A stretch of 64,000 nucleotides of DNA from Octopus vulgaris (lineage: Eukaryota). A program made the translations under genes and the position numbers. Under the pieces are notes generated by a model. The model worked only from the letters and a program-made list of their open reading frames with translations, was not told the origin of the DNA and made no database searches. Numbering within the stretch: the first letter of the stretch is position 1; each line of letters starts with the position of its first letter. This document shows, in pieces, positions 3,330 through 58,577 of this stretch. Where the stretch lies: the NCBI GenBank assembly GCA_951406725.2, contig OX597830.1:57288001-57352000 (forward strand), written 5' to 3'.

Positions 3330-3494
3330 GGCACAGGTGTGGCTGTGTGGTAAGAAGCTTGCTTCCCAACCACATGGTTCTGGGTTCACTCCCACAGCAT
3401 GACACCTTGGGCAGGTGTCCTCTACTATAACCTCAGGCCGACCAAAGCCTTGAGAGTAAATTTGATAGATGGAGATTGAAAGAAGCAAGTCATG

Positions 3495-3535
<41 letters not shown>

Positions 3536-3539
3536 ATAC

Positions 3540-8184: not shown

Positions 8185-8566
8185 AGGCAGAGACATGGCT
8201 GTGTGGTAAGAAGCTTAATTCTCAACCTCATGGTTCCAGGTTCAGTCCCACTGCATGAAACCTTGGGCAAATGTCTTCGATTGTAGTCCCAGACTGACCA
8301 AAGCCTTGTGAGTGAATTTGGTAGGCAGAAATTGAAAGAAGCCAGTTGTGTGTGTGGTGGTGGTGGGGGGGGTGTTTGTTTCTTTCCACTGCTTGACAAC
8401 TGGTGTTGGTTTGTTTACATTCTAGCAGTTCAGCAAAAGAAACCATTAGAACAAGTACCAGGCTTAAAAGGAAAAGTACAGGAATCAATTCGTTCAACTA
8501 GAAGTCTTTCAAGGTGTTGCCCCAGCATGGCCGCAGTCTAAGACTGAAACAAGTAAAACATAGAAA
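8185..8566 (+). mobile_element. SINE family A
   Basis: TGGCTGTGTGGTAAG...GGTTCAGTCCC...CCTTGGGCAAATG...CCCCAGCATGGCCGCAG. Confidence 0.85.
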
Positions 8567-22105: not shown

Positions 22106-22381
22106 AAGCTCAAATGGTTTTCCTAATAATAACTATAATAGCAATAGTAATAAAATTTAAAAACATAATTGAAGCTAAGTTTGCTTTTTAAAATGGTGAA
22201 AATAAACTTTCAATATATTTTCTTCAAGAGAAAGATTAGCCAGTATGAATTAATCTAGGCTCCTATATTTAGAATCACAGGTATATTCAGGTGTAAAAGT
22301 TAAAAGTATTTTTTGATTTGGATCAGACCAAAACTAACAAATGTACATACATAAATACATATATATATATATATATATATA

Positions 22382-22926
22382 TGAGGGTGAGTCAAAAAGT
22401 AATACCATTTTGTTTAGGACAGGTATAATTACCAACACGGGAACATGTATCATGCTTCAACATGAAGCTGGTCCTCTGTGGATCACATTGCTACTTCTCA
22501 ACATAGTCACCATTTCTCTCAATAGCAATATTCCACCTTTGAATGAGAGCATGTACCCCTGCCCCGTAAAATTCTATTGACTGTTCTTTGAGCCACTTCT
22601 TCACTACAGTTTTCACTTCCTTGTCACTGGAATAATGCTTGCCTCACAAACCCTCTTTCATGGGGGCAAAGAGATGATAGTCCAGTGATAAGGAAGTGAA
22701 AACTGTAGTGAAGAAGTGGCTCAAAGAACAGTCAACAGAATTTTACGGGGCAGGAATATATGCTTTCATTTGAAGATGGAACATTGCTATTGAGAGAAAC
22801 GGTGACTATGTTGAGAAATAGAGATGTGATCCACAGAGGACCAGCTTCATTTTCATGTATGATACATGTTCCTGTGTTGGTAATTATACCTGTCCTAAAC
22901 AAAATGGCATTACTTTTTCACCCTCA
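22382..22926. mobile_element. Mariner-derived fold-back MITE
   Basis: ~250-bp inverted arms starting TGAGGGTGAGTCAAAAAGTAAT; arms encode transposase C-terminus SSDKEVKTVVKKWLKEQSTEFY...NGDYVEK*; inserted in (TA)n. Confidence 0.9.
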
Positions 22927-22946
22927 TGCATGTATGTATATATATA

Positions 22947-22981
<35 letters not shown>

Positions 22982-30791: not shown

Positions 30792-32139
30792 TTATAAGTT
30801 TATATACGTGATCATTTCCTCTTGGTTAGGGGGTGTGGGGTTGGTATAGGGTTGAGGGGGTGCATACATTTGGCTGTTACTGATGTAATCCTGTCTCATG
30901 ACCATCGTATCCTGGGCATAATAAGGCTGTTGTGCATCAACATTGCTCAGGAAATTCTCTTGTTTTCTGTAGGTGAATGACTGGCCATTGTATGTACAAA
31001 ACTGCTGCGGTGGGACTTGATTTGCAGGATACAGATTGGTAAATTCCTGCTTCACTTGTACTTCACTTGGGTTTGGATTGGGGAGGTGGTTAGAGTTAGC
31101 AGCACTATTGCTATTGGTGCTGCTATTGCTGCCAAAAGGTTCCAATTGATGGTTTGTTCTATTTAAATTAATCACAACAGGCTTGGTATCCACGTTTGTT
31201 TGATTTGGGTATGGTGTTGGCAAAGACAAAGACACGCTGTTTGTAAGGTTGCAGTTGCTCGGTAACTTGACAGCAACACTTGTGTTAGTGACACCAGAAG
31301 ATGTGGTGGAAACTAAGTTGATATCATTTGATATTGAAGAATTGATATCACAGGTGTTAATAGGATTAGGCACTGGCCCAAGGCCATTCTCTGCTATAAC
31401 ACCACCATTATATAAAAGTGCAGTGTTGCCATCACACATGAGTGCTGCTGGAGCTGGTGGTAACGGTGGTTTGCAGGTAAGGGTGTGCTTCTTAAGTTGC
31501 TTTGAATATGAAAAAGACTTTTTACAGCTTTTACACTGAAACGGCTGTTCACCTGTATGAGTCCTCTGGTGAACAACCAAATTACTGCTACGAGCAAATG
31601 TTTTGTCACAGAAGGAACAGCTGAAAGGCTTCTCACCCGTGTGAGTGCGGATGTGTAATGTTAAGTTGTATGTGCGAGGAAATTTCTTTTTACAATATTT
31701 GCACTCAAAAGAATTCACTTTATGCGACCGAGTGTGTTCCCTTAATTCACTGAAGCAGGTGGCTGTCTTTTCACAGTACTGACACTGATACAGCTTGTCT
31801 CGATTGTGCTGGGTTTTGATGTGCTGGGTCAGCCCATACAGTCGAGACAGGGTTTTCTTGCAATACTCACAGGTGTAGCGTTTTTCTCCGCTACTATTTG
31901 TAGTACAAGCACCACCAACAGTGCTAGCGCTGCTACATCGACTGCTATTCAGGTTGTCACACTCAGAAGGGTGTTGCATCTTCATGTGTTGTTGCAGCTC
32001 CTCAGAACTATAAAATGTCTTTTGGCAGTGCTTGCACACTAATAGCTTCGCTTGAAGCTGTTCTGTTTTGGTGTCCAGAAGCTGTGAGAATCCAGGTGGT
32101 TGGCCAGCATTTATATCTGCTGCCATGCGTTGATGGTGG

Positions 32140-32174
<35 letters not shown>

Positions 32175-33203
32175 TGGATGAGTTTGGTGAGGAGGAAGAG
32201 GAGGTGGTGGTGGTGGAGGAGGGGCATGCTGACCAAATTCCAGCTGTCTGGCAGTGTTGCTATCAATTGATTGATTAAAGTCAATTTGGTTTTGAGGCTG
32301 AGGGAGATGCTGCAATGTTTGCGAAAAACTTATCTCTTCGATTTTCGGTTCAACTAGATGCTGCTGCTGCTGCTGTTGCTGTTGTTGTTGTTGCTGTTGC
32401 TGTTGTTGTTGCTGGGTTTGGAAATCCAAAGACATAGTTTTCACTTGTTCTGGAGAAGCAAAGTCAACCTGGCCAGGTGTTCCCACAGAATTGTTTACCT
32501 GTGAAACAAAATCTAATTGTTCGGTCTTGAGTTTCACTGGTTCATTAAAATTTAATTGTTCCAACTTGTTTTCATTATGCTGAATGAGATCTATCTGTTC
32601 AGCGTCTCCCATTGATTGTGCAAATCCAAATTGGCTGATTGTTTGGACTTTATCATCCACAGAGACAGACTGGTTAAAGTCAAGCTGCTGTTTGCTTAAC
32701 TGCTCAAAATCTAAATCAGACTTCTCGCTCTTCACCATTTCACTGAAGTCAATTTGCTCTTGTTTTACAACGGAACTCAAATTATTTATGTCCTCTGGTT
32801 CATTCTTTATTTGAACTGGGAAGGACAACTGTTGTGCTGCCACTACATCTAACTGCTCAGGGAATTCAAGAGTTCCTGATTTCAAATCCATTTGATGAGA
32901 GAACTCTATATCTAACTTACCAGTTTGTGATGTGGGAAACTGAATTGTTGCAGTATCATCACCTGTTGGCTGCTGCGGAATAAACATCAGGTGACTCGCA
33001 TCTGCACCTTGGATTATATGAGTCTGCTGAGCAAAGTCAAACTGTGTGACATCAATTTGTGGGAACTGTGTTGGTGAGCGCTGCGAAGGTTGTTGAACAT
33101 AATTCAGCTGACCAACAGTAATGGACGTTGGATCTGAGTTTCGTACAAAGTTACTTGCAGTTGGGAATGTCTGTAAGAAAGGTTTTTCAGTTTTAAAAGA
33201 CAT
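30792..33203 (-). CDS. C2H2 zinc-finger transcription factor, 803 aa, single coding exon
   Basis: Long intact ORF with 5 C2H2 fingers and a terminal C2HC finger (~31472-32037), TGEKPF/TGEQPF linkers, polyQ, polyP and polyH tracts. Confidence 0.95.
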
Positions 33204-33311
33204 CGTGACCAGTATTTGTAGCAGCTGGTTTCACTCATAAGCAGGAACTTATAAAAGAGTTTACACACTGTGGATGATTTCAATGTTGAGACAGCAGCAT
33301 GAAGTTGGATT

Positions 33312-36583: not shown

Positions 36584-37230
36584 ATCATCATCATTGTTTA
36601 ACGTCCACTTTCTGCGCTAGCACGGGTTGGACGGTTCGACCGGGGTCTGGGAAGCCAGGGCCTGCACTAGGCTCCAGTCTGATCTGGCAGTATTACTACA
36701 GCTGGATGCCCTTCCTAACGCCAACCACTCCGCAAGTGTAGTGGGTGCTTTTTACGTGCCACCTGCACAGGTGCCAGGGGGGTCTAGCATCGGCCACAAT
36801 CGGTTGGTGCTTTTAACGTGCCACTGGCACGGAAGCCAGCCAAGGCGGCGCTGGCATCGGCCACGTTCGGATGGTGCTTTTTTATGTGCCACCGGCACAG
36901 AAGCCAGTCGAGGCGGCGCTGGCAACGGCCACGTTCGGATGGCACTTTTTATGTGCCACCGGCACAGAAGCCAGTCGAGGCGGCGCTGGCATCGGCCGCG
37001 TTCGGATGGTGCTTTTTATGTGCCACCGGCACAGAAGCCAGTCGAGGCGGCGCTGGCATCGGCCGCGTTCGGATGGTGCTTTTTATGTGCCACCGGCACA
37101 GAAGCCAGTCGAGGCGGCGCTGGCAACGGCCACGTTCAGATGGTGCTTTTTATGTGCCACCGGCACAGGTATCAAAACTACTATTTCCATTGATATTTGC
37201 ACTTGACTCAACAGGTCTCCTCAAGCACAG
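36584..37230 (-). mobile_element. Repeat family C, young, with expanded 67-bp minisatellite
   Basis: Family C ends; GTGCCAC-initiated units at 36756, 36818, 36886, 36953, 37020, 37087, 37154. Confidence 0.9.
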
Positions 37231-39889: not shown

Positions 39890-39996
39890 TGTATATTTTA
39901 ATCAAGATTCTTCCTAATTCTGACAAATATAATTCCTTGACAGAATCATGCCATCATCATAACAGAAACCACAATCCATTTCAGAAAATTTCTTTA

Positions 39997-40685
39997 AGCT
40001 TGCTTCTCAACCACATGGTTACAGGTTCAGTCCCACTGCATGGCACCTTGGGCAAATGTCTTTTACTGTCACTCTGGGCCAACCAAAGACTGTGAGTGGA
40101 TTTGGCAGACATAAACTTGAAGACTGTACAAAGGTGTGTGTGCATGTGTGTGTGTGTGTGTGTGTGTGCATTTGTCTCCTGCTCCCCACTACTTGACATC
40201 ATCATCATCATCATTTAATGTCTGCGTTCCATGTTGGCATGGGTTGGATAGTTTGACTGAGGACTAGCAAGGTAGGCAGCTGCACCAGGCTCCAATCTGA
40301 TCTGACAGAGTTTCTACAGCTGGATGCCCTTCCTAACACCAAGCACTCCAAGAGTGTAGTGGGTGCCTTTTATGTCCCACTGGCACTGGAGCCAGTCAGG
40401 TGGCACTGGAACCAGCCAGGTGGCACTGGCATCAACTATGCTCGAACGGTGCTTTTCATGTGCCACTGGCACTGGAGCCAGTCAGGTGGCACTGGCATCA
40501 ACTACGCTCGAACGGTGCTTTTTATGTGCCACTGGCACTGGAGCCAGTCATTTGTTTGCATTCCCGTAACTTAGCGGTTCAGGAAAAGAAACCAACAGAA
40601 TAAATAAACGACTTAAAAATAGAAAGTGTTGGAGTCAACTTACTCGACAAAAACTCTTCGAGGCAGTGCCCCAGCATGGCCAGAG
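39997..40685 (+). mobile_element. SINE family A with nested family C element (40197-40549)
   Basis: A body stops at ACTTGACA and resumes TTTGTTTGCATTCCCGTAACTTAGCGG after the C insert. Confidence 0.8.
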
Positions 40686-43451: not shown

Positions 43452-43488
<37 letters not shown>

Positions 43489-43527
43489 TACTTTAGGAAT
43501 GAGAACCCAGGTTCAAAATTTCTCCAA

Positions 43528-43573
43528 GACACCTGATGAAGGTTGAAGAGTATATCTGCCGAAACGTTGTGTT
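43528..43573 (+). ncRNA. Minimal type I hammerhead ribozyme (family H copy 43488-43625)
   Basis: GACAC CTGATGA A GGTTG...CTGCC GAAA CGTT GTGTT, with ACGT palindrome in place of stem III. Confidence 0.75.
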
Positions 43574-43914
43574 AACAACAAACAAGATGAGGACAAATAT
43601 CAGTCAAATGTAAATAATGTAAATACTGTTTGGTTGTGGTAAACTGGGGCTCTGTACCAGGCACCATTCCAATTTGGTTTGTTTTCTATGGCTGGATGCC
43701 CTTCCTAATGTCAACCACTCTACACAATGTACTGGATACCTTTTAAGGGTCACCGGCACTGGCCACAACTATGATTTCACTTAGCTTGACGTGTCTCCTC
43801 AAGCACAACAAATCACCAAAGGTCTTCATCACTATACATATTCACAAACATAGATATATATCCATATGTACATATATTCTTACATATATATTCATACTTA
43901 TTACACAGATACAA

Positions 43915-43959
<45 letters not shown>

Positions 43960-43967
<8 letters not shown>

Positions 43968-44415
43968 TAAATTAGAGACAAAACCACTATTAGGCAAATC
44001 AAACAATGAAAGACTTAAGCCAATACATAAATTAATTTATATTATTTAAATATGTAACAATTATTAAAAAAATATAATTAATATCCGCTACGTCTTGATT
44101 CAAAATTAGTTCATTGTTTAAAACTCGCCAAGAAAAATTTTGAAACACCTGATGAATGACTGCGACCTAAAAATTTGATGACAGCAGCCAGGAAACGATC
44201 GTAGTGGATATTAATTATATTTTTTTAATAATTGTTACATATTTAAATAATATAAATCAATTTATGTATTGGCTTAAGTCTTTCATTGTTTGATTTGCCT
44301 AATAGTGGTTTTGTCTCTAATTTAATATAATATAATATTTTACTATAAAATTGGATTCAATCCTAAATCTGATTTTTCCCTGTAAGTTTGGATTTATTCC
44401 CTAATATTTATTATT
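43960..44415 (+). mobile_element. Penelope-type terminal fragment with inverted partial copy, in (TA)n
   Basis: ~133-bp inverted repeat 43960-44092 / 44200-44333 around a hammerhead; 3' extension homologous to 59745-59810. Confidence 0.8.
44146..44206 (+). ncRNA. Type I hammerhead ribozyme
   Basis: CAC CTGATGA A TGACTGC...GCAGCCA G GAAA CGATCG TA GTG; palindromic stem III ACGATCGT, GUA cleavage triplet ending 44203. Confidence 0.8.
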
Positions 44416-48547: not shown

Positions 48548-48703
48548 AGGTGTGGCTGTGTAGCAAGAGGTTTGCTACCCAACCACATGGTTCCGGGTTC
48601 AGTCCCACTGCGTGGCACCCTGGGCAAGTGTCTTCTACTATAACCTCAGGCCAACCAAAGCCTTCTAAGTGAATTTGGTAGGCGGAAACTGAAAGAAGCC
48701 TAT
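48548..48703 (+). mobile_element. SINE family A, 5' part
   Basis: GGTTCCGGGTTCAGTCCCACTGCGTGGCACCCTGGGCAAGTG. Confidence 0.85.
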
Positions 48704-48704
48704 C

Positions 48705-48755
<51 letters not shown>

Positions 48756-51396: not shown

Positions 51397-51772
51397 AGGC
51401 TGAAGTGTGGCTGTGTGGTAAGGAGCTTGCTTCCCACTACATGCTTCTAGGTTCACTCCCACTGCATGGCACCTTGGGCAAGTGTCATCTACTATAGCCC
51501 CGGGCTGACCAAAGCCTTGTGAGTAGATTTGGTAGATGGAGGCTGAAAGAAATCTATCATGTATGTCTGTGTCTTTGTGTCAATGTTTATCCCCCATCAG
51601 TTGGTGTGTTTACATCCTTGTAACCTAGTGGTTCGGCAAAAGATATTGATAGAATAAGTACTGGATTTGAAAAAAATAAGTACTAGGCTTGATTCATTCA
51701 ACTACAAATGCTTCAAGGCAGTGCCCCAGCATGGCCGCAATCTAAAGACTGAAACAAGAAAAAGATAAAGAT
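51397..51772 (+). mobile_element. SINE family A, full length
   Basis: Colinear with 3330-3760. Confidence 0.85.
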
Positions 51773-52683: not shown

Positions 52684-55330
52684 TTGGCCACCACTGCCAC
52701 CAAGCCACCCATCATACCAACACCAACGCCATTTCTACTAATGAATATAAGAGGCTTGCTGCAGAACAGCAGTAAATGCAAAATTGAGCACCTGAAGAAT
52801 CTTTCTGCATGTAATCAAGCTATATGCATTGCACTTACAGAAACACATCTATCTGCAGACATAAATGATGCGGAGATACCCCATACCAATGTATGCTGTC
52901 TTCTGTACAGACAGAAGAAAAAGATGTCACTGTGGAGTTGCAATGTACATCCGAGAAGATGTCACACCATTAACCCTGTTATTGAACTGGAACACGGTGT
53001 GTGACACACTCATGGTACATCTAAAGCAACTTGATATAGTGATATGCACACTATATTGCCCACCTGATGCCTCAAATCATGATGGAAAATTTGAGGAAAG
53101 CCTCAGTGTGATAAAGGAAGTACTAACACAATTGGATCAACATATTCCAGATGGGTGACTTCAACTTCCCCAACATCAGGTGTCCTGAGGGCAATATAAC
53201 CCCACGAATGACACACTAAGAGCGAAATCAAGCAGAATCTCTACTTGATCTTACAAAAATGCTATTCATGGAGCAGATCATCCTCTCTCCAACCAGGCAC
53301 AAAAATATCCTGGACCTCTGTTTTACAAACAATGTGGAAATTATCCACAATGTAAATATATCACTGACAATATTCTCAAACCATAACATGATAGAACTGA
53401 CAATGTATGGCCCAGAATTAACTAAAGATAAACTCCACACAGATGGCACTCAAACCCTATCCAGCCTAAATTTCTATAAGGCTGACTGGAAGTCACTTGA
53501 AAAACAGAAACTTTAGCAGGACAGGCCTAAAAGCCTCTCTATGCAAGACATAGATATGAAACTCAATTAATTCATATCAATAATGCAAGCCATATGCATT
53601 AAATACATCCGAGAGAAGGGAGCCAATACACAAAAAAACATCATTCCCCAAGACAGGAGAATACTCATGCAGCGGAGAATAAAGATCTCGAATCATTTCA
53701 ACAAACACATCAATGACAGTGGGAAATCCCAGCTGACAGAGATGGAAAATAAACTCAAAATCTCCCATGGAAAAAAAAGAGAGGAAAATCCTAAAGCTTT
53801 CTACATGTTGGCAAAGGAGTCTGCCTCAGTATGCTATAAGATAGGGCCACTATTTGGCAAAAATGGCTCACTAAATGCAGACCCAGGGAAGATAAGTGAA
53901 GCACTAAATAAACAATTCCAAAGTGTTTTCACTTTTTCCCTCTGGAAAATATGCAAATAAACAAGCCGAAGGAGTTTTTCAATGTAATTAATCTATTTCG
54001 AAAAGAGGCAACCATCGATTACATCAACATAACAGAAGAGGATGTAATATTGGCCATTGATGAGATGAGATCGAACTCAGCAACAGGCCCAGATGGACAC
54101 CCAGCTGTTCAACAAGGTGGGAGAGTGCTGCATGATTTTCCAAAGGGCAGGAGTCAGACAGCTCTAGCCAATGATGCTCACTCTAAAGAGGAACCAATTC
54201 TCAGTGAAGTCCCACAAAGAGCTGTACTGGGACCACTACTATTTGTGGTGGCCCCCTCAGACATGCCATCTACAGTACAGTCAGCCAATCTGACCAGTTA
54301 TGCTAATGACACCAAAGTATTGCAGGCAGTTAGGAACCCAGAGGACACCATAAAACTGCAGAAAGACCTGAACGAAATATACAAATGGGCTTACAAAAAT
54401 AACATGCAGTTCAAGGCTATGAAATTTCAGGCACTCCACTATTGGTCAAACATCAGGCTAAAATCGGAATACAGTGGACCAGAAGGTAATACTATCCCAG
54501 AGTCAAAGTCGGTGCATAACCTGAGGGTTCACATGAGCAATGATGCAACATTCCATGTGCATATTACCAAGATGGCAACACTGTGCAGGCGAGTGGCTGG
54601 ACGGATTCTGAGGACATTCAAGAACCAGGAAAAGGGAGGGGCCCTGCTACCCCTACGGAGTACTTTTGTTCTCAGCTGCCTGGACTACTGCTCTCAACTA
54701 TGGTCCTCAGAGAGAGTGAAACAAATTGTGGAACTCGAAGCAATACACAAAGAAGATTGACACGATGCAAAAGATGAGCTACTGGGAGAGGCTAAGGGAG
54801 CTGAGTCTTTATTTCTGGGAGAGGCTAAGGGAGCTGAGTCTTTATTTCTGGGAGAGGCTAAGGGAGCTGAGTCTTTATTTCTGGGAGAGGCTAAGGGAGC
54901 TGAGTCTTTATTTCTGGGAGAGGCTAAGGGAGCTGAGTCTTTATTTCTGGGAGAGGCTAAGGGAGCTGAGTCTTTATTTCCTGGAGAGAAGAAGAGAGAG
55001 ATATGCAGTGATATATATATTTGGAAGATCTTAGAGGGTTTAGCTCCCAATTTTGGAATTGACAGCTATACCAATCCTCAAACTAGACAGCACTGCTTCA
55101 CACCAAAGATCCCATCTTCCCCATCTAAAATAAGGACTCAGTACTGAAATAGTCTGGGTTTCGAGGGCCTGCAATTGTTCAACATCCTTCTAGGCAACCT
55201 TAGAGATCTACATGGTATTGATGTGGAAGTTTTCTGGACAGGTTTCTCTCTGTGGTACCAGATGAACCCACATCACGGCAGGAGACGCAAAGAAGTGTAA
55301 CTCCATCCAGAAACCGGAAACCATACCAAA
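52684..55330 (+). mobile_element. CR1/L2-clade LINE ORF2 (APE endonuclease + RT), frameshifted, RT internally deleted
   Basis: MNIRGL, ALTETHL, GVAMYI, GDFNFP, PTR.KNILDL, NFYKADW, VPQRAVLGPLLF, YANDTK, LQKDL..IYKWA, LDYCSQLWS. Confidence 0.9.
54782..54979 (+). repeat. Perfect 33-bp tandem repeat x6 inside the LINE
   Basis: CTGGGAGAGGCTAAGGGAGCTGAGTCTTTATTT, encoding WERLRELSLYF. Confidence 0.95.
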
Positions 55331-55503: not shown

Positions 55504-56091
55504 TTACACACATATATATTAGTAACTGGGGCAGTGATGGATTCATCCTTATCATTTAATGGCCATTTTCCCGGATGGCATGGGTTCAATGGTCTGACAG
55601 GAGCTACCAAACCAGAGAGCTGCACCAGGCTCCAATTGTCTGTTTTGGCATGATTTCTATGGCTGGATGCCCTTCCTAATGCCAACCACTTTACAGAGTG
55701 GACTGAGTGCTTCTAATCTAACACCATCACCACCAGAGCTTTATTCATGGCACCGGCACAGATATGAACTTACAAACAGTCAGACCAAAATGCTAAAAAT
55801 GATTGTAATATAAAAGAGTAGACACAAAAAAAAAAAAAATCAATAAAGAACTCTTAAATATTTCTGTATAATGAGCAGATGTCTCAGGGTCACAAGCATT
55901 TCACCCCTTAGCCTGTAGCTTCACCTGAGTGGCACAGCAAGGCCTGAACTAGTCTTAACCTATAGAAGGGTTTCATTTACAGTCTCTTCTCAAAAACAGC
56001 CATCTATTTAAATGTATCAGATGTGTAAGTCCATTCTGATGTAATAAAAGTCTTGTTTTTCAATAAAAATAATTTAATAATTTAATTATTT

Positions 56092-56315
56092 GCATTATTT
56101 ACATTTGATGGATATTTGTCCTCATCTTGTTTGTTGTTAACACAACATTTCGGCTGATTTACCCTCCAGCCTTCATCAGGTGTCTTGGGGAAATTGCGAA
56201 CCTAGGTTCTCATTCCTATGGTATTTTTCAATGATATTATTATTATGGTCACTGCCTGGAATCAAACTCGGAATCTTGGGGTTAGTAGCCCACTCTTAAC
56301 AATGCCATATGCCCA
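56092..56315 (-). mobile_element. Family H SINE, near full length: tRNA-like head + hammerhead
   Basis: Minus strand GGCATATGGC...GTTAAGAG.GGGCTACTAACCCCAAGATTCCGAGTTTGATTCCAGGCAGTGACC, (AAT)n spacer, then hammerhead. Confidence 0.85.
56139..56184 (-). ncRNA. Minimal type I hammerhead ribozyme
   Basis: GACAC CTGATGA A GGCTG...CAGCC GAAA TGTT GTGTT. Confidence 0.75.
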
Positions 56316-57244
56316 TGAGCACATGGCGTAGTGATGAACTTTCTTATCAAACTCAGTCGTGAATTTGCCAGCAAAGAACAAAATAATTTTTTTACAGTGA
56401 CAAATGTATCAGGTTCTTATAAATATTCAACTTGATTTTCTTTGCTATTTTGAAAATACAGGAATCTATTTTTTAATTCTAAAGTAAATTTATACTTTTG
56501 CCTTGGTAGTGTTTTTAAAGTTGGGAAACAAAATGTATCAGTGGAATATTTCTGTAATTCTCAGGATACAGGGCAGACATTGAGACATTCTTCACTTTTT
56601 TGGCACATCGTAAACAGTTAAGTAACACCATTTAAAACAGCTTGCTGCACTTGCGCGCTGACAATTAATAAACCATGCACCTCTCCACAAAACAAACATT
56701 GGTTACTTTTGTATTTGTATAAAAACATTGCTGAAAAATGCTTTCCCAGTCATAAAACAACAATCAAAACTAAATTATCAGAAATTATATATAGTAGTGG
56801 TGTTATAGAAAAAAGATGTTTCACACATCTAGACATAGCTTAACCGTAGTTAAATAAAGACTGGTGAACAATTAATAGAATAGATTTGCCAGGAATATGG
56901 CTCATGTGAATCCAAGTAGACTAGTCATTAGTAAATGTGATAGTACTGTTAAAATTTTTTTTTAATTCATTGTTGCCAGTATGGAAGGCAGACATTAAAT
57001 GGTAATGATGGTGATGAATATTTAAAAGCAAGACAGAATCTTAGAACGTTTTCTTGTTAGAAATTATTTTAGTCTAAGCAATTTATGGAATGGTATACCC
57101 ATCCCACCACCAAATCTGACAATTTTCTTGCAACTTCTCAAAGATGTTGCAATATTTCCCTCTGAGAGATACTGCAGAAACATCCAGCTCCCCAGGGTAT
57201 CTTTACAAACACTCCCACCTTACCACAACTCATGCAACAAGAGA

Positions 57245-57465
57245 TAGTTTCTGCTGGTAACAAAGGGGTTCTCCCTCAGAATGATGGGCAGATTGTATGA
57301 AGCGACTGAGTCAAATGAGACGGTACATTGCAAGGAGGCATGGGTCTTGAATGCAAAGGATCTGAGAAGATGAGAAGGAAATGAAGTGAGCCTGCTTTGC
57401 AGGACGGGCAAAACTGGTGTGCATGAACAACTGAACAAATAAGTGGAGGCAAAAACTAAATCATA
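57245..57465 (+). mobile_element. RTE-clade LINE fragment
   Basis: LLVTKGFSLRMMGRLYEA...EAWVLNAKDLRR*EGNE.SLL. Confidence 0.7.
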
Positions 57466-57494
57466 AAATGATGCAGGTGTGTTATTAATATTTC

Positions 57495-58307
57495 TAGAGG
57501 GTTGTTATTGAAAATATCAACATTAGCAGATAATTTAGATAATCTAAATGAAATATTCTTTACTAAGTTTTTAGTAATTGCTCCAGGATGATTACTAAAT
57601 TTGCTAATGTACTTAAGATTGGTCAACGGTTTACGATATGGGAGGTAAGAGTCACTGTGTAAATTAAGTGTAATATCTAAAAAGTTGGCCTTCGTCATAT
57701 CGTCATCAAAAACGATTTTTAAGCCCATTCTACTGAAAAAATTAACTAAACTATTCTTAACTTTTTGTACCTTTTGGTTGGAAACATTTTGGAGGTAAAG
57801 TAAACAATCATCATGATATAGACCTCCATAAATGTTAGGGAACTCTTCAGCCATTTCAAAAAGAATATATATACAGACCACATCAGCTATCTGTGCTGAA
57901 TCAGCACTTCCCATTGGTATATCGAAACTATCTGGTGTGTCTTTACGGACCCACAACTTATCATCAAATTTAATAATAGATCTTCTGGCTGCCAACACAA
58001 CATTAATTTCTTCTCGGGTGAGACCAGCTTTGTTATGAGCAAGCCAAAGTGCCTTATTAAGTACTATTGGATTGATAGATGAATAAAAATTGGAAATATC
58101 AAACTGGATAAACTTAGTACTCACCTTATTGTTAATAGAACTAAACCAGTCAACTACTTCAAACGAATTAGTCCATAAACTAAGTTTTAATGTTTTGATT
58201 AAATTAGGAATATATTTATCTAGTATATTTTTACTAAGGATACCGATGTCAGAGCTAGAAGGGCAGATAAGCCTTAATGATGGGTTAGTAAAAAAATTTC
58301 TATCCAT
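57495..58307 (-). mobile_element. Naiad-like Penelope reverse transcriptase (inverted segment)
   Basis: RLICPSSSDIG, W.NS..V.DWF, FDISNFYSSI, FDIPMGS.D.A, GLYHDD, NFLDITLNL, PYRKP, YISKFSNHP. Confidence 0.9.
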
Positions 58308-58577
58308 TACTCAACATTTAGGGATAGAAATAAATGGAATAGTACCGGTCTCAGCAAACTGATTTGGGATTTAAAAGACCACAATGAACAATTTCATTTA
58401 GAATGGTTGATTCTCTCAATTTCGATACCATATGACAAAGGCAAGAAATTCTGTCTTCTCTGCAATTCTGAGCTATTTTTCATTATTTTTTCTAAAAATA
58501 CTCTAGTAAACACAGTTATAGAGCGAGCATACAGATGTAAGCATTGACAAAAACATACATTTAGTGCATATAAGTAG
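58305..58577 (+). mobile_element. Naiad-like GIY-YIG endonuclease C-terminus (not in ORF track)
   Basis: HYSTFRDRNKWNSTGLSKLIWDLKD...W.IL....PYDKGKKFCLLCNSE...RCKH*QKH...*. Confidence 0.85.

Follow-up and report, generated by a model that had tools for sequence, protein, structure and literature searches.

The window, a stretch of 64,000 nucleotides of the Octopus vulgaris genome, contains at positions 56085-56333 a composite repeat whose parts follow one another on the minus strand in the order 15-nt inverted arm, 12-nt palindrome, tRNA-like head, (AAT)n, about 55 nt of further sequence, minimal hammerhead and 58-nt tail. The short inverted head mentioned in a preliminary description of this DNA is indeed adjacent, as an arm of 15 nt (56319-56333, plus strand) which mirrors the head about the terminal palindrome and would have arisen by fold-back. 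The palindromic leader (56310-56321, minus strand) covers -7 to +5 of the head and is common to the long copies of a Penelope-like element (PLE) described below. By sequence, the head (56247-56314, minus strand) has an A box (56298-56307), an anticodon-like arm (56279-56291) and a B box (56258-56269); all the parts of the Pol III-type head first proposed are therefore found on the minus strand, but the A box has suffered deletions and the B box has decayed at CpG sites. Then, as had been claimed, come an (AAT)n spacer (56246-56236), which from its sequence and the comparison of copies is variable in length and often the target of later insertions, and a minimal type I hammerhead (56184-56139, with CUGAUGA at 56179 and a predicted cut after 56144). 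The view that the repeat ends in the hammerhead has to be abandoned, since about 58 nt follow the predicted cut and the 3' ends are not set by the ribozyme. The tail downstream of the cut (56085-56138, minus strand) stops at the first of two family-wide end clusters, and neither poly(A) nor a target-site duplication was seen at the 3' end of this copy. Ribozyme and tail lie within the first 43 or so codons of a PLE reading frame (56085-56213, minus strand), which opens with an ATG at 56213 and here meets a stop at codon 4. With this early stop, the deletions in the A box and CpG changes in both the B box and stem III (AUGU as against ACGU in the family majority), the window copy is dead, and the family looks inactive. 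At this copy the Rfam covariance models gave no match to hammerhead or head, and ARAGORN did not call the head as a tRNA.

Four copies had been counted in the window and four arms are present, but they lie at three sites (547-712 on the minus strand with 790-934 on the plus strand; 43470-43625, plus; 56084-56321, minus) and only two of the four contain head sequence. The insertion at 547-934 is a head-to-head pair of arms, and that at 43470-43625 is a headless arm which begins in (AAT)n and has a mutated stem II. A minimal-hammerhead descriptor found two places in the window, at 650 and 56179, and none in 100 shuffles. The high genomic copy number suspected from the window was borne out, for 17 insertions were found in 100 evenly spaced 10-kb stretches of the genome (2.8 Gb, 227 contigs), with 15 stretches positive, giving an estimate of about 48,000 decayed insertions genome-wide with a Poisson range of roughly 28,000-76,000. 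Exact matches numbered 10,112 for a 24-nt tail motif and 2,521 for a 25-nt head motif, with none for the reversed controls, 452 for the junction between PLE 3'UTR and head, and 525, partly double-counted, for the mirror junction. Copies diverge from the family majority by about 4% at non-CpG positions. Sequencing runs under five organism labels contain at least half of the sampled family words, a count made without the small-share metatranscriptome rows, and the family may already be deposited in Repbase, Dfam or SINEBase. Of 90 loci picked on the head, 72 have it linked to the hammerhead, which answers the first of two challenges that the preliminary description had set itself, and most of the other 18 stop at (AAT)n. 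Most of the head-only copies among L191-L280 end at the spacer with other repeats directly behind.

The second challenge concerned the ribozyme core, and this too is intact in the family majority, where the hammerhead has stems I and II of 5 and 6 bp, the boxes CUGAUGA and GAAA, an extra A before stem II, a stem III of four self-complementary nucleotides (ACGU) and a GUU triplet. It has the minimal type I core (CUGANGA, GAAA and NUH, with stems I and II and a palindromic stem III), whilst a type III fold was rejected as stem III has no upstream partner in the sequence. Conservation of the core columns is 91-100%, except at CpG sites and at position 7, a free position which is U in 65% of cases and otherwise mostly A and is the sole subfamily-level variant in the core; the core boxes are kept in 97 of 287 arms, 60 of them strictly. 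No Rfam hammerhead family gave a covariance-model match to the ribozyme. Minimal PLE hammerheads are described as needing dimers and cleaving weakly (PMC4209133), and the ribozyme found here is predicted to need a dimer or the help of a protein. Its predicted cut would take off the start codon rather than define the end of the inserted DNA: the cut was considered as the element end and rejected, the 3' ends of 364 arms falling in two clusters about 30 nt apart, 50-85 nt further on. Nor do 5' ends show a clear peak at the cut (two of 98 at the site and eight within 3 nt, against about three expected), and read ends in RNA-seq data do not pile up there.

The identity of the repeat becomes clear from what lies next to it in longer copies. 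The end of a reading frame is found just upstream of the head in four of the best 30 copy matches and, among 30 loci picked on the endonuclease end of that frame (one being the query), 28 go on to the head and 27 to the ribozyme body, with 29 nt between the PLE stop codon and the head. The order in long copies is reverse transcriptase (RT), GIY-YIG-type domain, stop, 29 nt, head, (AAT)n, ATG, hammerhead and tail. A single ORF encodes a PLE-type RT, with RT motifs present and a Pfam RVT_1 match at E 2.6e-10, and after it a GIY-YIG-type endonuclease, assigned by motif order and alignment to homologs, with no Pfam GIY-YIG hit; this is the arrangement expected of a PLE. There are 28 homologs of full-length type, the best of which (P0001) is 55% identical, and a PDB search with the protein gave weak RT matches only. 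The assignment to the Penelope/Poseidon-type clade is made from the lack of a Zn-finger linker rather than by comparison with named reference sequences. The tail of an upstream repeat leads on into the ORF, forming a partial-tandem pLTR (L065, L247/L393, L406 and most of 30 ORF-start loci), and in the family majority a frame starting with an ATG 34 nt ahead of the ribozyme core passes through ribozyme and tail into the ORF. The N-terminus of P0001 aligns with the peptide encoded over the ribozyme (score 96, against a shuffle maximum of 58). The standard features of PLEs are said to include an inverted partner arm and a tail of 30-40 bp (PMC8557442); the two clusters of 3' ends correspond to the optional tail, and an inverted, 5'-truncated partner copy adjoins many long copies as well as short ones. 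Only two of the 30 ORF-start loci begin at the head, without the whole ORF, and an intact ORF was found in none of the best 30 protein-matching loci. A retained spliceosomal intron, present in some PLEs and not required of all, was not found; a candidate GT..AG intron in the tail was rejected, as it is read through in frame in P0001 and has no matching joint among the RNA joints listed. Rather than a free-standing SINE, the sequence is a pLTR with its tail, the terminal repeat of a protein-coding PLE.

A striking feature of these repeats is the position at which they begin. The sample of 90 head loci was made up of the first exact matches to the head along a single chromosome; it was selected for an intact +1 and includes near-duplicates (L203-L205, L241-L242). 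Of these loci 72 begin at -7 to +1, within 8 nt of the tRNA +1, where 1.7 would be expected from the upstream truncation rate; the remaining 18 continue into the PLE. Thus 80% of head-bearing copies start at -7 to +1, and they end at one of the two tail positions. Loci not picked on the head behave likewise, 14 of 18 arms that reach the 5' end of the head stopping there. Three ORF-start loci join the ORF directly to -6/-7 of the head and resemble template jumps from an RNA 5' end. There are also recurrent junctions at which the ORF, about 227-247 nt past the tail, passes to the head start or the region of the ribozyme cut (L373:1730, L377:1762, L378:1731, L376:1730, L395:1731), and these look like template jumps or an internally deleted subfamily. 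An internally deleted mini-PLE was rejected as the source of the short copies, at most one of 72 having ORF-start sequence directly upstream.

The head at which the copies begin is of tRNA origin. It is colinear with host tRNA genes, the best being tRNA-Arg(TCT) at z 7-8 against shuffles and the others scoring 2-7 (tRNAs of 30 loci), and it matches a host-tRNA profile at E 2.8e-6, although it falls below the threshold of Rfam. The A and B boxes, 44 nt apart, are intact in the family majority, whilst the stems have been lost. A tRNA-type promoter would start transcription where the head copies begin. We regard the window sequence as a decayed solo terminal repeat of an abundant PLE, the tRNA-derived head of which likely acted as a Pol III promoter. 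The pile-up of 5' ends would map the transcription start because reverse transcription would run off the 5' end of the RNA. By analogy with an anole PLE, in which the ribozyme lies across the ORF start and reverse transcription of an uncut RNA template starts at two sites inside it (PMC11167929), reverse transcription here would begin in the ORF-start tail of uncut RNA. Priming in the upstream repeat would yield a SINE-sized copy, the enzyme running off the 5' end of the RNA once about 260 nt had been made, whereas priming in the downstream repeat would give a long, 5'-truncated copy; the cDNA end may then fold back on the terminal palindrome, or join a second cDNA, to produce the inverted arm. 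The least secure step is that Pol III would have to read the whole 2.6-kb unit, a unit in which there is no TTTT terminator.

An important consideration is whether the start belongs to Pol III at all, as the start of any polymerase yields the same 5' pile-up. The D. virilis Penelope is described as having a TATA-less internal promoter inside its pLTR (PMC2377424), and in the octopus PLE a Pol II promoter of this kind may start at the same place, the tRNA relic being a passenger or having been reused as a Pol II promoter and the short copies still arising by run-off. A capped RNA would, moreover, solve the problem of translation, since the RNA made by Pol III has no cap and serves poorly as a messenger, and protein production is not accounted for under the Pol III reading. 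Cleavage by a ribozyme can promote cap-independent translation (PMC13725137), and by analogy this is a possible help for the octopus PLE, though the cut would remove the first ATG. Against Pol II stand the survival in the majority of an intact A box and B box, spaced as in a tRNA, despite the loss of the stems, the coincidence of the start with that of a tRNA-type promoter, and the absence of T runs. The majority unit has no TTTT in 2,605 nt, as against 4.4 expected by base shuffle (P 0.008), a gap that belongs to one family majority, and 30 raw copies, which are not independent, hold 19 against 90 expected. Nearly all the other PLEs tested differ in this: 59 families, drawn from 79 metagenome loci with families under 1 kb dropped, have a median observed/expected ratio of 1.22, and the one without any TTTT in its ORF has six in the UTR before the ribozyme. 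In the octopus genome TTTT is not depleted in four LINE clusters (from 30 loci) or in a distant PLE-like RT in the window, the latter fragment being the only in-genome PLE control, as the further PLE loci retrieved (30 and 12) all belong to the same family. On the 367-codon open stretch, however, the codon-aware tests are mostly not significant (synonymous P 0.20, codon-order 0.12; base shuffle 0.09), only a composition-weighted null giving 0.008, and G4 runs are likewise absent from the unit. The lack of TTTT in the whole unit is a feature of the sequence hinting at Pol III transcription, and a Pol II promoter appears an unlikely alternative. RNA-seq raw reads from a related organism cover both strands equally and in proportion to copy number, with no place on the element where many molecules begin or end; these reads are passive read-through, and neither they nor the RNA-seq contigs revealed a start, a cut or a strand.

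The preliminary description took the repeat for a tRNA-head SINE, and it was right in so far as most copies are SINE-like and start at the head. On that footing the short copies would be the progeny of Pol III-transcribed masters which borrow the PLE enzyme and spread independently, and such masters would explain why four fifths of head-bearing copies are short; also in favour of this view, the same three haplotypes, found in both classes, differ somewhat in proportion between them (GTA in 18 short and 6 long copies, AAG in 10 and 11). The whole of the short sequence is nevertheless the PLE's own repeat, and the short copies have no lineage of their own: no position differs at p<0.01 between 60 long and 72 short copies, so that there is no diagnostic site, and there is no distance structure (between-minus-within distance -0.0003, P 0.68, for the 47 and 56 copies long enough). 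Neither poly(A) nor a simple repeat forms the 3' end of the family, where the ends fall inside the ORF start. The short copies stop at ORF +128 to +157, and the anole PLE is described as requiring a template with 172 nt from the start of its ORF (PMC11167929), which counts against an independent family; a true SINE is accordingly improbable. Equally improbable is that there was no transcription start here and that the enzyme, moving along a longer RNA, stopped or folded back at the palindrome or a tRNA-like fold, or that the RNA was cut in the manner of RNase P, for although the palindrome spans the pile-up, an inverted arm adjoins 53 of the 72 short copies and five of the 14 unbiased head-start ends lie at +4 to +9, the other 19 short copies start at the same place with no inverted arm, the other nine unbiased ends pass through the hairpin to +1 or further, neither stem II, though stronger, nor the tail palindrome shows a peak of this kind, and the cloverleaf is too degenerate for ARAGORN to find a tRNA in the head even at a 75% threshold.

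If the Pol III promoter is taken as the likely reading, a bolder history can be put forward tentatively, in which the PLE acquired a tRNA promoter, cleared the whole of its 2.6-kb unit of Pol III terminators, was transcribed by Pol III from one end to the other and shed tens of thousands of solo repeats, and in which tRNA-headed PLEs may have arisen more than once. The lead for the last point is a distant tandem PLE with a unit of 2,791 nt (L435:2756-3030), in which an A box, a B box, (AAT)3 and a minimal hammerhead follow the stop codon in the same order. It is the only one of 46 other PLE 3' regions with such an order, 0.003 being expected per set. Its head is unlike that of the family studied here (z 1.3), it comes from a single contig, there are two T4 but no T5 in its unit, and a tree with a weakly supported backbone, built without 16 short metagenome rows, does not place it as sister to the octopus PLE. 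From its sequence it is a possible independent tRNA-headed PLE, and only a lead.

The closest known systems are the EN+ Penelope/Poseidon-type elements, represented by the anole PAc (PMC11167929) and the D. virilis Penelope (PMC2377424), for which the accounts available, together with PMC8557442, describe the same ORF of RT and C-terminal GIY-YIG-type domain, the partial-tandem pLTR and the inverted 5'-truncated arm, and also (PMC11167929, PMC8557442) two 3' ends about 30 nt apart, a hammerhead over the ORF start and an uncut RNA template. Unlike these as described, the octopus pLTR begins with an A/B-box head at which most copies start, and its unit is without T4. The minimal hammerheads of metazoan PLEs (PMC4209133) are reported to share the short stem I, the extra nucleotide before stem II, G10.1-C11.1 and the palindromic stem III, and to occur mostly as solo copies with some opposite-strand pairs 100-700 bp apart, but the ribozyme predicted in octopus differs from those described in its GUU triplet and in being joined to a tRNA head. 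The parallel with Sm-alpha drawn in the preliminary description proved to be one of outward likeness only. Sm-alpha and Sj-alpha of Schistosoma are described as having a tRNA-related head, a hammerhead and tens of thousands of copies (PMC2770079), whereas the octopus ribozyme, with its palindromic stem III, is of the minimal PLE type, overlaps the PLE frame and is part of an autonomous PLE, a link not found for Sm-alpha in the text of that report available to us; the Schistosoma hammerhead is classed as canonical (PMC4209133). Animal non-LTR retrozymes (PMC7229834; bioRxiv 10.64898/2026.07.22.740005) are likewise presented as non-coding hammerhead repeats related to PLE pLTRs, the second source deriving retrozymes from PLEs, but as head-to-tail arrays that give circles, whereas octopus copies are solo or head-to-head and have a tRNA head; no array of head-to-tail units was found among 20 insertions (a 1-Mb sample plus the window), a few loci showing short tandem jumps. 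A small-RNA-derived Pol III promoter in a terminal repeat is also described for the Helenus and Ajax TRIMp3 elements, which unlike the protein-coding octopus PLE are non-autonomous LTR elements with PBS, PPT and TSDs; the tRNA-like sequence is located in the LTRs of these TRIMs (PMC10886601). If the octopus reading is true, it supplies the PLE counterpart of such Pol III-headed TRIMs. Octopus is also reportedly the source of the tRNA-derived SINEs OK, OR1 and OR2 of Ohshima and Okada (1994), the latter two being cited as CORE-SINEs; their heads are tRNA-derived as well, the comparison with the head studied here being by description only. No report of a tRNA-headed PLE or of a PLE-mobilised SINE was found in the open-access literature. 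Protein-coding retrotransposons are taken to use Pol II or read-through from host rDNA, and a PLE with a tRNA promoter, if true, would be an exception. SINE-like repeats could also arise in this way with no SINE lineage of their own, a point that matters for SINE counts in SINE-rich genomes, and we suggest that in genome data the transcription start of any PLE should be recognisable from the 5'-end pile-up of its solo pLTRs.

The window contains a variety of other repeats and frames. The distant PLE-like RT is a fragment with a 284-codon frame and a weak RVT_1 match (57459-58310, minus strand). An inverted repeat of 135 bp at 43958-44334, 99% complementary and with a CUGAUGA...GAAA motif within its spacer, may be the repeat of another PLE family, and a second one of 289 bp at 22346-22966, 88% complementary, resembles a folded DNA-transposon fragment. 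A LINE-type RT fragment with seven copies of a 33-bp tandem repeat lies at 53912-55012 (plus strand), and further abundant dispersed repeats, one with (TG)n/(TA)n at its end, together with a tandem array of 67 bp set within a repeat, occupy 3335-3538, 8191-8394, 39996-40091, 48548-48751, 51402-51605 and, listed separately, 36744-37213. An open frame of 812 codons with several C2H2 zinc fingers (30795-33230, minus strand) is probably a host gene exon.
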